Source: a virus (lineage: Duplodnaviria > Heunggongvirae > Uroviricota > Caudoviricetes). From it: a stretch of DNA of 4,111 bases. The notes beneath the pieces are model-generated. The model searched no databases and was not told the DNA's origin. It worked only from the letters and a program-made list of their open reading frames with translations. A program made the translations under genes and the position numbers. The DNA lies in the IMG/VR virus record IMGVR_UViG_2778261572_000015. The stretch is one strand, 5' to 3'. This document shows, one piece after another, positions 1 to 4,111 of this stretch; the first letter of the stretch is position 1, and each line of letters starts with the position of its first letter.

Positions 1-1011
1 TTATAACGTCACTCCGCCTTTTAGAGGATTCAGCGCGACGGCATTTTGCAGGTAGTCAGGCGCAAGGTGCGCATAGGCCATCGTCTGCTGAATGCTCGCA
101 TGTCCCAGAATCTGTTGCAGTGCGATTATATTGCCCCCATTCATCATGAAATGGCTTGCGAATGTATGCCGCAGGATGTGGGTTGCCTGATTGGGTGGTA
201 TATCTGGCTTCACTCTGCGTAAAATCCCGCAAAACTTCTCATAATCAACTTTGAATAATTTAGCGCTGGCCTCCTCTTTAACTTTTTTCTCCAGTTCCTC
301 AGAAATCGGCACGGTTCGCTTTTTACCGTTTTTGGTTTTCAGGAAGGTAACCCTGCAATTTGTAATCTGTGCTGGTTTTAGCGTGGCAACTTCCGTCCAT
401 CTTCCTCCAGTGCTCAGACATAAAAGTGCGACAAGTAAGTCATCACCATCCAAAACATTTAACAGTTTTTCGATTTCTGCTTTTTCCAGGAACGTCATTT
501 CAGGGTTGGCCTCCGCCAGTGGCGGCAGTCCGTGAATTGGGTGTTGCCCGGAAAATTCATCCAATTGAATTAATTTTGTGAACATGCCGGATAATCGGTA
601 CATGTCACGGTTTATCGTTGCGGCACTGATACCATCACGTAGTCGCATGGAACGATAATCCATCAAAGCTCTTTTGCTCATCCGGCTCACTGGTATATCA
701 CCTATGCCGCTGATGGTTTTGAGCAGATGATTAAACTCTTTTGTTCCATGCTCGTGGTTTTGCCCGTGATATTTCCACCAGATGTTCAGCAACTCACTCA
801 AAGTTCTGCGATCTGCTCGCTGACCTGCCCATTCTTTCTGGCTGGCGTAGGCGATTGTGTATCGCTCAAATGCTACAGCCTCAGCTTTTCTTTCAAATTT
901 CCTGCGGATGCGTTTTCCGTCGCGACCGCGAGGTCTAATGTCCACTTCATAGCGTCCATCATCGAGCTTCTTAATTGACATAAGAAAGCCCTCTGACGCT
1001 GTATTCACCAT
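1..1011 (-). CDS. int: Tyrosine-type site-specific integrase (P2 Int-like). Longest ORF is 336 aa from the ATG at 1011; an alternative in-frame ATG at 981 (MSIKKLDDG..., 326 aa) has a much better Shine-Dalgarno (GAGGG 8 nt upstream).
   Basis: Translation carries the tyrosine recombinase catalytic signature: conserved Arg in LSTGGRWTEV, then HILRHTFASHF and LGHASIQQTMAYAHL (H-x-x-R-H ... Y). Size about 330 aa and position next to a small repressor match P2-type integrases. The window starts exactly at its stop codon (TAA, complement of 1..3). Confidence 0.93.
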   Translation of the reverse strand: MVNTASEGFLMSIKKLDDGRYEVDIRPRGRDGKRIRRKFERKAEAVAFERYTIAYASQKEWAGQRADRRTLSELLNIWWKYHGQNHEHGTKEFNHLLKTISGIGDIPVSRMSKRALMDYRSMRLRDGISAATINRDMYRLSGMFTKLIQLDEFSGQHPIHGLPPLAEANPEMTFLEKAEIEKLLNVLDGDDLLVALLCLSTGGRWTEVATLKPAQITNCRVTFLKTKNGKKRTVPISEELEKKVKEEASAKLFKVDYEKFCGILRRVKPDIPPNQATHILRHTFASHFMMNGGNIIALQQILGHASIQQTMAYAHLAPDYLQNAVALNPLKGGVTL

Positions 1012-1050
1012 CTTGGTAACAAATGGTGAAAATGTAATGTTTATAGAGTG

Positions 1051-1344
1051 TTAACCAGTCTGTTTTTCGGAGTGGTCTGATTCTGTTGGTTTTTGCCCAA
1101 TGTGTGCGAGAGCCGGCGCGATCTGACCAGCTTGTGGTGACGTATCACCAGTCATTAACCAGAGCGTATATTTTTTAAATAAAGGCGTATTTGTGACTCG
1201 CATAACGATGCTGAGACCAGGGTCTTTATGCCCACTTTCGTAATTTTTGACTGTTCCTAGAGCTATCCCGCTAATTTCGCTGAATTTCGCCTGTGTTAAG
1301 CCTTCTGCTTTCCTAATCGCTTTCAGTTTTTCGAATGTCTGCAT
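1051..1344 (-). CDS. C: Phage immunity repressor, P2 C-type (97 aa, small HTH repressor)
   Basis: 97-aa ORF immediately upstream of and co-oriented with int. The N-terminal part has an HTH-like segment (LTQAKFSEISGIALGTVKNYESG). The C-terminal motif KYTLWLMTG...GQIAPALAH matches what I recall of P2-family C repressors. It faces a rightward early promoter, as expected for a switch. Confidence 0.78.
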   Translation of the reverse strand: MQTFEKLKAIRKAEGLTQAKFSEISGIALGTVKNYESGHKDPGLSIVMRVTNTPLFKKYTLWLMTGDTSPQAGQIAPALAHIGQKPTESDHSEKQTG

Positions 1345-1373
1345 TTGACAGTAACCTATTGGTGACTTATATT
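1345..1373 (+). promoter_or_regulatory. Candidate early promoter (Pe-like), sigma70 type: -35 TTGACA (1345-1350), 17-bp spacer, -10 TATATT (1368-1373)
   Basis: Read directly from the sequence: exact consensus -35 hexamer, optimal 17-bp spacer, 4/6 match at -10. It is oriented toward the cox-like operon and begins at the nucleotide after the repressor start codon, so the repressor mRNA must originate further right and read across it (face-to-face arrangement). Confidence 0.55.
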
Positions 1374-1400
1374 CCCGTTAAAAGGTTGTGTATTGGTGAC
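1357..1400. repeat. Two perfect 10-bp direct repeats TATTGGTGAC (1357-1366 and 1391-1400), candidate repressor operator half-sites flanking the -10 element
   Basis: Exact 10/10 direct repeat, centre-to-centre 34 bp. One copy lies in the promoter spacer abutting the -10 hexamer, the other 18 bp downstream of it. P2-type repressors are known to bind direct (not inverted) repeats flanking the -10 of Pe. Confidence 0.45.
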
Positions 1401-1496
1401 CTTTTGAGTGTGTTAGCCAGTCCCTAGAAAGGACAGGTGCGACCTAGAAGGGACTGGATCTAATAAGGGTAACACGAAAGCAAAAAGGGCTAATCA

Positions 1497-1769
1497 ATGG
1501 AAGTCAATGACTATGTGATTCAGTACCCGATTGATGCGGTACATACGGTTAAGTTTGCAGAGTTACTTGGTAAGCCAGAAACGGCTGTAGTCAAGATGGT
1601 AAAAGAGAATAAGTTGCCAGTTATTGAGCTTCGTGATCCAAGTAAGCCGAACGCTCGTGTCGGTGAGAAGTGGGTTTTCATTCCAGAGTTTAATCGCGCT
1701 GTACGAGAGGCGTTTTATAACCGACCAGTTGAACAGCGTGATGCATGGCTTTTGTGGATGGGGTTGTGA
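1497..1769 (+). CDS. cox: Cox-like protein (excisionase / directionality factor and repressor of the lysogenic promoter), 90 aa
   Basis: First gene of the rightward operon, divergent from the repressor. Size (90 aa) and motifs KLPVIELRDP...GEKWVFIPEFN...RP.EQRDAWLLWMGL fit my recollection of P2 Cox. Good RBS (AAGGG, 7 nt upstream of ATG 1497). Confidence 0.68.
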   Translation: MEVNDYVIQYPIDAVHTVKFAELLGKPETAVVKMVKENKLPVIELRDPSKPNARVGEKWVFIPEFNRAVREAFYNRPVEQRDAWLLWMGL

Positions 1770-1771
1770 TT

Positions 1772-1942
1772 ATGAGTGAACCGCGTTGTATTGCTCAGTT
1801 ACTGCGTAACGAAAGCCCCAGGGCGATTGACTTCACCATCACCCACGGTAAGGGGCGTAAGGGAATCATTATCCGCACCAAAAAACAGAGTCCGTTAAAA
1901 AAGGCTCTGACCTTTCTGAAAAGCCGGAGGGTATGGAAATGA
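1772..1942 (+). CDS. Small, highly basic hypothetical protein (56 aa from ATG 1772; the ORF track's longer form starts at 1745 inside cox)
   Basis: ATG at 1772 lies 2 nt after the cox stop (TGA 1767-1769), with a G-rich stretch upstream. The product has about 15 Lys/Arg and 3 acidic residues. It sits where P2 carries a small ORF between cox and B. Function unknown. Confidence 0.5.
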   Translation: MSEPRCIAQLLRNESPRAIDFTITHGKGRKGIIIRTKKQSPLKKALTFLKSRRVWK

Positions 1943-2439
1943 CAGTGATGACGCTCAATCTCGTTGAAAAACAGCCAGCAACTATGCGCCGGATAATTGG
2001 TAAGCATCTGGCCGTCCCTCGCTGGCAGGAGACATGCGATTATTATAATCAGATGATGGAACGTGAACGGCTAACGGTTTGCTTCCATGCGCAGTTAAAA
2101 CAGCGTCACGCAACGATGCGTTTTGAAGAAATGAACGACGTCGAACGTGAACGACTGGTATGTGCAATTGATGAATTGCGTGGGGCATTCTCAAAACGCC
2201 GTCAGGTTGGTGCAAGTGAGTATGCATATATTAGTTTTTTAACAGTCAGTCAGCGTCGCACTTTATTTATGCACGCACGACTGACAGAAAAAGAATTTAA
2301 CCAGCCATACTGGCGAATTAATGAAGAATCATGTTACTGGCGTGATGCTTTATTCCGTGCATTACGTGAATTATTCAGTCTGTTTGAGTATGCACCGACA
2401 ATTCTGACGTCGGTAAAACCAGAGCAATATCTGCATTAA
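1939..2439 (+). CDS. B: gpB-like early replication protein (P2 B is needed for lagging-strand synthesis / DnaB helicase recruitment), 166 aa
   Basis: Assigned by synteny and size only: P2 B is 166 aa as I recall it. The preferred start is ATG 1939 (GGAGG at 1926-1930, 8-nt spacing), which overlaps the upstream stop as ATGA (1939-1942). The ATG at 1933 offered by the ORF track has only a 2-nt spacer. Confidence 0.5.
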   Translation: MTVMTLNLVEKQPATMRRIIGKHLAVPRWQETCDYYNQMMERERLTVCFHAQLKQRHATMRFEEMNDVERERLVCAIDELRGAFSKRRQVGASEYAYISFLTVSQRRTLFMHARLTEKEFNQPYWRINEESCYWRDALFRALRELFSLFEYAPTILTSVKPEQYLH

Positions 2440-2502
2440 GTAATTAACCAGAGTTTTTAACGCACTTAATTGTGCGGGGCTTCTTTTTGCCTGGAGAAAG
2501 TC

Positions 2503-2727
2503 ATGCATACAGTTTCTGAAAATCAGTGCGGTATATACGCATTACTGCTGCAACAGGCCAGAACCGAAGCACAGGCCGACGCTGCGACGCGCTTTTCTTC
2601 TCATCTTGACGCCATGATTCGCCACATCACAAAGGCGGAGTTATCCCGCGTGGAGATAGTCGAGCTGCTCAGTCAGGAGTCGGAAAAATTTCACAATATC
2701 GGATTGTCTCGTGGGGAGGTGCTTTGA
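2503..2727 (+). CDS. Hypothetical small early protein (74 aa from ATG 2503; the ORF track's start at 2470 is a TTG)
   Basis: GGAG at 2493-2496, 6 nt upstream of ATG 2503. Its stop (TGA 2725-2727) overlaps the next start. No motif I recognise. Confidence 0.5.
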
Positions 2728-3029
2728 TGTCCTGTTCTCATTCAGTTGTATTACTGAATAACGCCTTAAAAATCGCCGTTATGGAAAATGGCGATTTGTC
2801 TCTTATTCAACTTGGTCTTGATAAAGAAAAGCGCGACATAACTGAATCTGTTATCGCGATTTATCAGAGCGAATTAAACCTCCTGTCTGATGTGATCAAT
2901 TTACTTGTGAAACGCGCTGTATTTCACAAGCAAATTTCCTCAGTGGATGAACTGACAAAATTAACGACAGAACTCGCCAGCTATTGCGCTGATGAATTTA
3001 AGAAACTGAACGACAAAAGGAACTGGTAA
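2727..3029 (+). CDS. Hypothetical protein, 100 aa, AT-rich coding sequence
   Basis: Start ATG 2727 overlaps the upstream stop (TGATG). GGGAGG at 2714-2719 gives a strong RBS. Its stop (TAA 3027-3029) overlaps the next start. Local GC is about 38-40 percent from my hand count, clearly lower than the flanking genes. Confidence 0.55.
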   Translation: MSCSHSVVLLNNALKIAVMENGDLSLIQLGLDKEKRDITESVIAIYQSELNLLSDVINLLVKRAVFHKQISSVDELTKLTTELASYCADEFKKLNDKRNW

Positions 3030-3253
3030 TGCCGGACAACGTAGATTTCATTCAGGAACAACAGGCTGAATTACTGGAGCGCCAGATTAACGCGGCAAGG
3101 GTAAAACATTGCGGTGCTTCTGCGCTGGTTTGCGAAGAGTGTGACGCGCCAATACCTGCTGCCCGTCGTGCGGCTTATCCGTCAGCCACGCGTTGTGTTT
3201 CCTGTCAGTCAGTCTTTGAAGCAAAAAACAAACATTACCGGAGAACGGCATGA
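3029..3253 (+). CDS. TraR/DksA-family C4 zinc-finger protein (74 aa)
   Basis: C-terminal CEECDAPIPAARRAAYPSATRCVSCQ...KHY carries two CxxC pairs with the PIP-x-x-RR spacing typical of TraR / lambda Orf73-type RNA polymerase secondary-channel binders. Start ATG 3029 overlaps the upstream stop (TAATG). Confidence 0.8.
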   Translation: MPDNVDFIQEQQAELLERQINAARVKHCGASALVCEECDAPIPAARRAAYPSATRCVSCQSVFEAKNKHYRRTA

Positions 3254-3525
3254 GTATTCGTATTGAAATTGGCGAACGTTATGTCGTTACCAGTGACAGC
3301 TTCCAGTTTATTCTCCACGAGAAAAAGAGAGCGGAAAGCGGTAAAAACGCCGGTCAGGAATGGCTGGCGGTGGTTGGTTATTACCCGAAATTAAGCCAGC
3401 TCGTTTCCGGCCTGATGCATCACGATATTCTGACCGGAAGCGCAAAGTCTTTTGCTGATTTAAACGCGCAGGTTGAGCAACTCAGCAAGCGTTGTTCAGA
3501 GGCTTTTGGCTCATATGGCCGTTAA
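3250..3525 (+). CDS. Hypothetical small early protein (91 aa)
   Basis: ATG 3250 overlaps the upstream stop as ATGA (3250-3253). GGAGA lies 5 nt upstream. Its stop (TAA 3523-3525) overlaps the start of the next ORF. No recognisable motif. Confidence 0.5.
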   Translation: MSIRIEIGERYVVTSDSFQFILHEKKRAESGKNAGQEWLAVVGYYPKLSQLVSGLMHHDILTGSAKSFADLNAQVEQLSKRCSEAFGSYGR

Positions 3526-4111
3526 AGCCTCCGGGCGTTTTGTCCCTCCGTCAGCATTTGCTGCAGGCACCGGTAAGGCGTTTACCGGTGCTTATGCATG
3601 GAACGCGCCACGCGAGGCTGTCGAGCGCGAAAGACCCCTTACACGTGACGAGATGCGTCAGGTGCAAGGTGTTTTATCCACGATTAACCGCCTGCCTTAC
3701 TTTTTGCGCTCGCTGTTTACTTCACGCTATGACTACATCCGGCGCAATAAAAGCCCGGTGCACGGGTTTTATTTCCTCACATCCACTTTTCAGCGTCGTT
3801 TATGGCCGCGCATTGAGCGTGTGAATCAGCGCCATGAAATGAACACCGACGCGTCGTTGCTGTTTCTGGCAGAGCGCGACCAGTATGCGCGCCTGCCGGG
3901 GATGAATGACAAGGAGCTGAAAAAGTTTGCCGCCCGAATCTCATCGCAGCTTTTCATGATGTATGAGGAACTCTGCGATGCCTGGGTGGATGCGCATGGC
4001 GAAAAAGAATCGCTGTTTACGGATGAGGCGCAGGCACATCTGTATGGTCATGTTGCTGGCGCTGCACTGAGAGATCCCCTCATAATTTCCCCAAAGCGTA
4101 ACCATGTGTGA
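3515..4111 (+). CDS. A: N-terminal portion of a gpA-like replication initiation protein; the frame closes with TGA at 4109-4111 after about 198 codons (212 in the ORF track, which starts at a TTG at 3473)
   Basis: Last gene of the coupled early operon, at the position of gene A in P2-type genomes. The ATG at 3515 (MAVKASGRFVPP...) is the likely start. P2-family A proteins are roughly 700 aa or more as I recall, so this product is either truncated or a different protein. Identity rests on synteny and recollection of the N-terminal sequence. Confidence 0.45.
   Translation: MAVKASGRFVPPSAFAAGTGKAFTGAYAWNAPREAVERERPLTRDEMRQVQGVLSTINRLPYFLRSLFTSRYDYIRRNKSPVHGFYFLTSTFQRRLWPRIERVNQRHEMNTDASLLFLAERDQYARLPGMNDKELKKFAARISSQLFMMYEELCDAWVDAHGEKESLFTDEAQAHLYGHVAGAALRDPLIISPKRNHV

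Follow-up and report, generated by a model that had tools for sequence, protein, structure and literature searches.

What does the small four-cysteine protein encoded in the early region of a P2-like phage do, and does it act on the host transcription machinery? We addressed this for orf82 in the 4,111-nt stretch of DNA analysed here, the whole of which is called the window. Positions 1–4067 of the window align in one piece, at 98–99% identity, to Peduovirus genomes including STYP1, Wphi, fiAA91-ss and several records named 'Peduovirus P2', and the gene map was obtained by carrying over the Wphi annotation (Table 1). A preliminary description of the locus had placed the gene within the phage early operon, and this location is borne out by the map: orf82 is on the strand served by a Pe-like promoter, is flanked by orf81 and orf83, and lies upstream of the replication gene A. 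Between B and orf80 the window contains a terminator-like hairpin, CGCACTTAATTGTGCG, followed by GGGCTTCTTT, implying that the genes from orf80 to A, orf82 included, are expressed by read-through and at a lower level than those from cox to B.

Table 1. Positions in the window of genes, expression signals and protein motifs discussed in the text.
Feature	Position	Strand	Basis or remark
int	1–981	-	Wphi annotation
C repressor	1051–1344	-	Wphi annotation
Pe-like early promoter, TTGACA-17-TATATT	1345–1373	+	11/12 consensus matches; Pe annotated at the equivalent place in P2
cox	1497–1769	+	Wphi annotation
orf78	1772–1942	+	Wphi annotation
B	1939–2439	+	Wphi annotation
Terminator-like hairpin with T-rich tail, between B and orf80	2461–2486	+	Putative rho-independent terminator annotated at the equivalent position in P2
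orf80 (DUF2732)	2503–2727	+	Pfam; Wphi annotation
orf81 (DUF5405), stop overlapping orf82 start	2727–3029	+	Pfam; Wphi annotation; read from sequence
Shine-Dalgarno-like AAGGA, within orf81 3' end	3017–3021	+	Read from sequence; 7 nt to orf82 ATG
orf82 (74 aa plus stop), TraR-family C4 zinc-finger protein	3029–3253	+	ORF list; Pfam, NCBIfam and PHROG matches
DxxDxA-type N-terminal motif (D-N-V-D-F-I), codons 3–8	3035–3052	+	Alignment to F TraR
Zinc ribbon C35-x2-C38-x17-C56-x2-C59, codons 35–59	3131–3205	+	Alignment to TraR; invariant in two alignments (A3, A4)
R46 and R47	3164–3169	+	Invariant in both alignments (A3, A4)
Predicted C-terminal helix, codons 59–74	3203–3250	+	AlphaFold helix 57–73; aligns to TraR residues 61–72
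orf83 (DUF5405), start overlapping orf82 stop	3250–3525	+	Pfam; Wphi annotation; read from sequence
Replication gene A, 5' part (about 184 codons), IS-truncated	3515–4066	+	Phage alignment; phrog_91

The ORF listing of the window contains orf82 as an intact reading frame running from ATG at 3029 to a TGA ending at 3253, exactly the coordinates given previously. Its ATG has A3029 in common with the TAA stop of orf81 (TAATG) and its TGA overlaps the ATG of orf83 (ATGA, 3250–3253), both as read from the sequence, and together with the upstream AAGGA these are the features of a translationally coupled gene. An antisense ORF of 54 aa and an overlapping +3-frame ORF of 50 aa at the same place found no support, and a minus-strand terminator-like match at 3250–3236 was at chance level (7 such matches found versus 4.6 ± 2.3 expected). 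An Rfam search of the orf82 region returned zero matches.

The product was assigned to the TraR family by several independent profiles. It matches Pfam PF01258 (zf-dskA_traR; E = 3e-11, 43.6 bits, cut-off 24.9) and, along profile positions 1–64 of 64, NCBIfam TIGR02419, the 'phage/conjugal plasmid C-4 type zinc finger protein, TraR family' (E = 4.7e-22, 78.3 bits, cut-off 59.7). PHROG 54 ('DksA-like zinc-finger protein') is matched over the full length with E = 1.5e-32. On these scores orf82 is a real gene and its cysteine motif did not arise by chance. The Wphi annotation likewise calls the gene 'DksA-like zinc-finger protein; similar to P2 orf 82; putative C4 zinc-binding protein highly conserved among P2-related phages'. 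In a sequence search of the PDB the top matches were TraR chains from TraR-RNA polymerase (RNAP) complexes (5w1s_M, E = 8.9e-10; 6n57_M, E = 1.6e-9), followed by E. coli YbiI (2kgo, E = 1.4e-7) and then by weakly scoring chains of the DksA family. The more restrictive equivalog models place the protein within the family: the F TraR equivalog NF010268 scores 43.2 bits against the 108 required, such that Orf82 is a family member and not an ortholog of F TraR, and the DksA equivalogs TIGR02420 (20 bits versus 115.5) and NF033459 (27.7 versus 105) are likewise far below their cut-offs, and Orf82 has a length of only 74 aa.

P2-like phages encode another small C4 zinc protein, the DNA-binding activator of the Ogr/Delta type, and a reading of Orf82 as a protein of that kind can draw on its similar size, its four cysteines and the presence of Ogr in the same phage genomes. 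This reading is disfavoured and extremely improbable. The Pfam scan gave no Ogr_Delta match at E ≤ 0.01, whereas the PF01258 and TIGR02419 cut-offs are both passed, and the spacing of the cysteines and the residues flanking them are TraR-like. Moreover, TraR-family proteins are reported to work without binding DNA (Gopalkrishnan et al. 2022, mBio 13:e00952-22, PMC9239242).

Assignment to the TraR family is also consistent with individual residues. F TraR and Orf82 are 38% identical over about 70–72 residues (BLASTP), with D3, D6, the paired arginines and the four cysteines aligned. A multiple alignment with F TraR, which also took in Orf61 of VP882 and homologs from Salmonella phage SEN8, Erwinia phage EtG, a Klebsiella phage, Serratia and a Xanthomonadales genome, has invariant columns at M1, D3, C35, C38, I42, P43, A45, R46, R47, P51, C56 and C59. 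Orf82 contains cysteines at residues 28, 35, 38, 56 and 59, the first of which is a fifth cysteine outside the motif, while C35, C38, C56 and C59 align with the F TraR zinc ligands C37, C40, C58 and C61. The four-cysteine motif with TraR-like spacing noted in the preliminary description is therefore the one that aligns to these ligands. The arrangement CxxC-x17-CxxC is found here in a protein of a length typical of the class (~70–75 residues), and the coiled-coil N-terminal half of DksA is absent.

Both aspartates of the DxxDxA motif that are needed for function in TraR, D3 and D6, are present in Orf82, but the alanine at position 8 is replaced by isoleucine (valine in one allele). Gopalkrishnan et al. 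remark on 'a missing A8 in Orf82' and suggest that it may contribute to the lower activity of this protein (PMC9239242). Since Orf82 is active despite I8, the alanine is not strictly defining for the TraR family. R46 and R47 are the equivalents of TraR R48, which contacts the rim helices, and R49, which contacts β′ Si3; the TraR helix corresponding to the predicted C-terminal helix of Orf82 contacts the β Si1 lobe insertion (PMC9239242).

The fold was predicted with AlphaFold using an alignment of 17 sequences from which frameshifted database entries had been removed. The resulting model (pLDDT 74) has two helices, residues 3–25 and 57–73, arranged around a ribbon of short strands, as in TraR. 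A single-sequence model was poor (pLDDT 61) and was kept out of the fold search. Against the PDB, the top eleven Foldseek matches of the alignment-based model were all TraR, YbiI or DksA-family chains, the first being TraR bound to RNAP (6n57_M, E = 4.9e-4) and the next 5w1s_M. Global superposition of the model on bound TraR is loose, with a TM-score of about 0.5 and an rmsd of about 13 Å, so that the model, predicted with moderate confidence, agrees with TraR in fold class but is not a precise model. Because of this loose superposition and moderate confidence, residue-level contacts with RNAP rest on homology. The TraR/DksA-type assignment made earlier from the letters is thus upheld by sequence, by curated family cut-offs and by a predicted zinc-ribbon fold for which a TraR-RNAP chain is the closest structural match.

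The encoded protein turned out to be identical to Orf82 of phage P2 over all 74 residues (tblastn against the phage collection; AF063097 27548–27772, AAD03304.1), and the two genes differ by only two synonymous substitutions, in codons 7 and 50. Experiments with P2 Orf82, one of five TraR homologs picked for testing by Gopalkrishnan et al., are therefore experiments with this same protein. When expressed from pTrc with IPTG, P2 Orf82 gave full complementation of a dksA deletion, as judged by growth on minimal medium (PMC9239242). Without ppGpp, the purified, untagged protein inhibited rrnB P1 with an IC50 of 250 nM, about five-fold weaker than TraR and lambda Orf73 (about 50 nM), while the RNA-1 control promoter was not inhibited (PMC9239242). 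Orf82 and TraR were about equally good competitors of labelled DksA for binding to E. coli RNAP, with half-maximal competition by Orf82 at 0.65–1 µM, which the authors read as use of the same site on RNAP, and Orf82 activated thrABC and argI by about 2–4 fold (PMC9239242). An older study, cited in the same paper, found that overexpression of Orf82 stops cell growth (Liu, Saha and Haggard-Ljungquist 1993, J Mol Biol 231:361).

These published results bear directly on what the preliminary description proposed for the gene. It had attributed to TraR-like proteins the binding of RNAP and the reprogramming of rRNA and amino-acid promoters, and both activities have been reported for the identical P2 protein; the assays it suggested on rrnB P1, on amino-acid promoters and for RNAP binding were already in print, with positive outcomes (PMC9239242). 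Its remark that what this family does in P2-like phages is poorly understood is, at the biochemical level, out of date given that report. The finding is correct but already known from the earlier purification and characterisation of the same protein. It carries little weight as a discovery, an identical protein having been shown to be TraR-like on E. coli RNAP.

Variation among close relatives was examined in 82 close copies of orf82 drawn from phage records and IMG/VR contigs, comprising 44 distinct nucleotide alleles. A viral-contig search with the TraR alignment returned only copies that are 97–100% identical, which were of no use for gene-order diversity and were used for variant counts. 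There were 28 distinct synonymous variants over 51.3 synonymous sites and 10 non-synonymous variants over 170.7 sites, a per-site ratio of about 0.11. The reading frame is intact in all 82 copies, with D3, D6, R46, R47 and the four zinc cysteines unchanged. The gene is under purifying selection.

The whole account that we favour, and which is very probably right, is that Orf82 is expressed early, binds host RNAP in the manner of TraR and independently of ppGpp, and shifts the activity of rRNA and amino-acid promoters in a way that aids phage production. Orf82 would be made from the early Pe transcript, by translation coupled to that of orf81 and orf83, once the C repressor no longer silences the prophage or the infecting phage. 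It then occupies the secondary channel of RNAP, where DksA also binds; binding at that site and the promoter effects have been shown with the identical P2 protein. On the model of TraR, the N-terminal helix with its D3 and D6 is expected to point at the active site of RNAP; the zinc ribbon (C35, C38, C56 and C59), together with R46 and R47, would lie on the rim helices and contact β′ Si3; and the C-terminal helix would touch the β Si1 lobe insertion. These residue-level contacts are modelled on the TraR structures. Binding would alter the conformation of RNAP allosterically, with neither ppGpp nor protein-DNA contact, and destabilise open complexes. Promoters whose open complexes are short-lived, those for rRNA and ribosomal proteins, are thereby inhibited, while those limited at a later step, such as thrABC and argI, are activated.

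During lytic growth of P2 this would slow host ribosome synthesis and free RNAP and other resources for phage production, as suggested by lambda Orf73, which is reported to slow host growth and to raise phage yield 3–4 fold in a manner that depends on D3 and D6. A host-takeover role for Orf82 is also suggested by its expression from Pe beside the replication genes and by the growth arrest reported in 1993. A search of the accessible literature for orf82 tested inside P2 found no deletion, burst-size or expression data, and the in-phage data on yield and host growth concern lambda Orf73 only.

Comparison with characterised relatives helps to define what is shared and what is particular to Orf82. 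P2 itself has the same neighbours (orf81, orf83 and A) and the same start and stop overlaps as the window, the differences being the two synonymous changes, the Wphi-like C and cox genes and the interruption of gene A by IS10/ISVsa5 in the window. F-plasmid TraR (5W1S_M and 6N57_M) is of nearly the same length (73 versus 74 aa) and resembles Orf82 in its D3 and D6, identical C4 spacing, RR pair and C-terminal KHY; it too occupies the DksA site on RNAP and is independent of ppGpp (PMC9239242). Unlike F TraR, which has A8 and belongs to a conjugation operon, Orf82 has I8, is some five-fold weaker on rrnB P1 and is encoded in a phage early operon. Lambda Orf73 is, like Orf82, a phage-encoded TraR homolog with early lytic expression that inhibits rrnB P1, but it is reported to be the stronger inhibitor and to give little or no activation of thrABC or argI, both of which Orf82 activates. 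E. coli DksA uses the same RNAP site and has a homologous zinc-finger domain, but at 151 aa it is a larger protein that includes a long coiled coil, and its full activity depends on ppGpp.

A further relative, the phage TraR homolog TraR_VP882 (Orf61), raises the possibility that Orf82 functions mainly as a subunit of a complex with Orf80 (DUF2732), Orf81 or Orf83 (DUF5405), in which the partner tunes the strength or the targets of RNAP control; what free Orf82 does would then be just one part of its activity. In VP882 the TraR homolog is co-transcribed with a small upstream gene and growth arrest needs RNAP binding; the TraR homolog and the product of that upstream gene, QisA, are reported to form a complex that causes a far stronger growth arrest than TraR alone (preprint 10.64898/2026.07.27.740977). 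The overlaps of orf82 with orf81 and orf83 would suit such an arrangement, as would the relatively weak activity of free Orf82 (PMC9239242). Orf82 does not need a partner, however, since the purified protein by itself both binds RNAP and regulates transcription (PMC9239242), and F TraR and lambda Orf73 function without such neighbours. QisA, a protein of 199 aa with no Pfam match and a CII-like annotation, has no detectable relation to Orf80, Orf81 or Orf83 and could be ruled out as a relative of these DUF2732 and DUF5405 proteins.

Gene order was surveyed by searching with a DUF2732 alignment a collection holding one genome per species, which yielded 28 loci in P2/186-like prophages of many Enterobacterales species. 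A TraR-like ORF lies downstream of the DUF2732 gene and on the same strand in all 28. The two genes overlap by 1 nt at 23 of these loci, by 44 nt as predicted ORFs at one, and are separated by 217–301 nt at the remaining four; in the P2 group this gap holds an orf81-like gene. The TraR gene begins at the end of the DUF2732 gene in SEN8 (Felsduovirus), EtG (Eganvirus) and a Klebsiella Gegavirus. All 28 loci belong to related prophages, however, and the linkage may be inherited gene order. On this balance we consider it unlikely that Orf82 works mainly through a partner. It is similarly doubtful that the TraR homolog of P2/186-like phages and its co-translated small proteins (the DUF2732 protein as the lead and, in the P2 group, also the DUF5405 proteins Orf81 and Orf83) form an RNAP-targeting module, analogous to QisA-TraR of VP882 while unrelated to it in sequence; if they did, DUF2732 and/or DUF5405 would gain a function.

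The two DUF5405 neighbours were also compared with one another. Orf81 and Orf83 match this Pfam family with E = 4.7e-33 and 2e-13, respectively, and both carry the PHROG and RefSeq label 'replication initiation protein'. They give no pairwise BLASTP alignment despite the family in common; they are not close paralogs but very distant ones.

Finally, Orf82 might serve mainly P2 rolling-circle replication or the control of phage promoters, for instance by clearing RNAP that conflicts with the replication fork or by tuning Pe, Pc or the late promoters. Clearing or destabilising RNAP in conflict with a replication fork is a role described for DksA. The gene lies within the replication block (B, then orf80 to orf83, then A) and its position beside A is kept in 186-like phages. 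DksA is reported to promote DNA replication, a function not studied for TraR proteins according to the same source (preprint 10.64898/2026.07.27.740977), and Gopalkrishnan et al. allow for some homologs acting on promoters of the phage that encodes them (PMC9239242). The activities demonstrated for Orf82 concern host rRNA and amino-acid promoters (PMC9239242). We regard a main role in replication or phage-promoter control as a distinctly remote prospect and retain RNAP-directed control of host promoters as the favoured function of Orf82.

In this particular prophage the match to P2-like phages ends at 4067, and positions 4067–4111 are the terminal 45 nt of the IS4-family element ISVsa5/IS10 (CTGAGAGATCCCCTCATAATTTCCCC...), from the side where the transposase gene ends. 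Gene A is thereby interrupted after about codon 184, so that Orf82 cannot serve productive replication here, and the prophage is probably replication-defective. The junction between the IS and gene A was found in no complete E. coli genome of the collection, where the best coverage of a junction probe was 86–87%, and the end of the window is probably a contig break induced by the repeat.

Several database relatives of the gene (P0012, P0014, P0026, P0029 and P0096) are orf82 with a frameshift; in P0096, for example, the C-terminal part is the +3-frame translation of positions 3114–3266 of the window. Such entries reflect either errors of assembly or decay of the prophage copy, and an alignment built without screening would be contaminated by them. 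The immunity region at 1051–1769, comprising cox and a 97-aa C repressor, is Wphi-like and not that of the P2 reference, in which C has 99 aa. Since Orf82 is nevertheless the same as in P2, this combination suggests mosaicism among P2-like phages.
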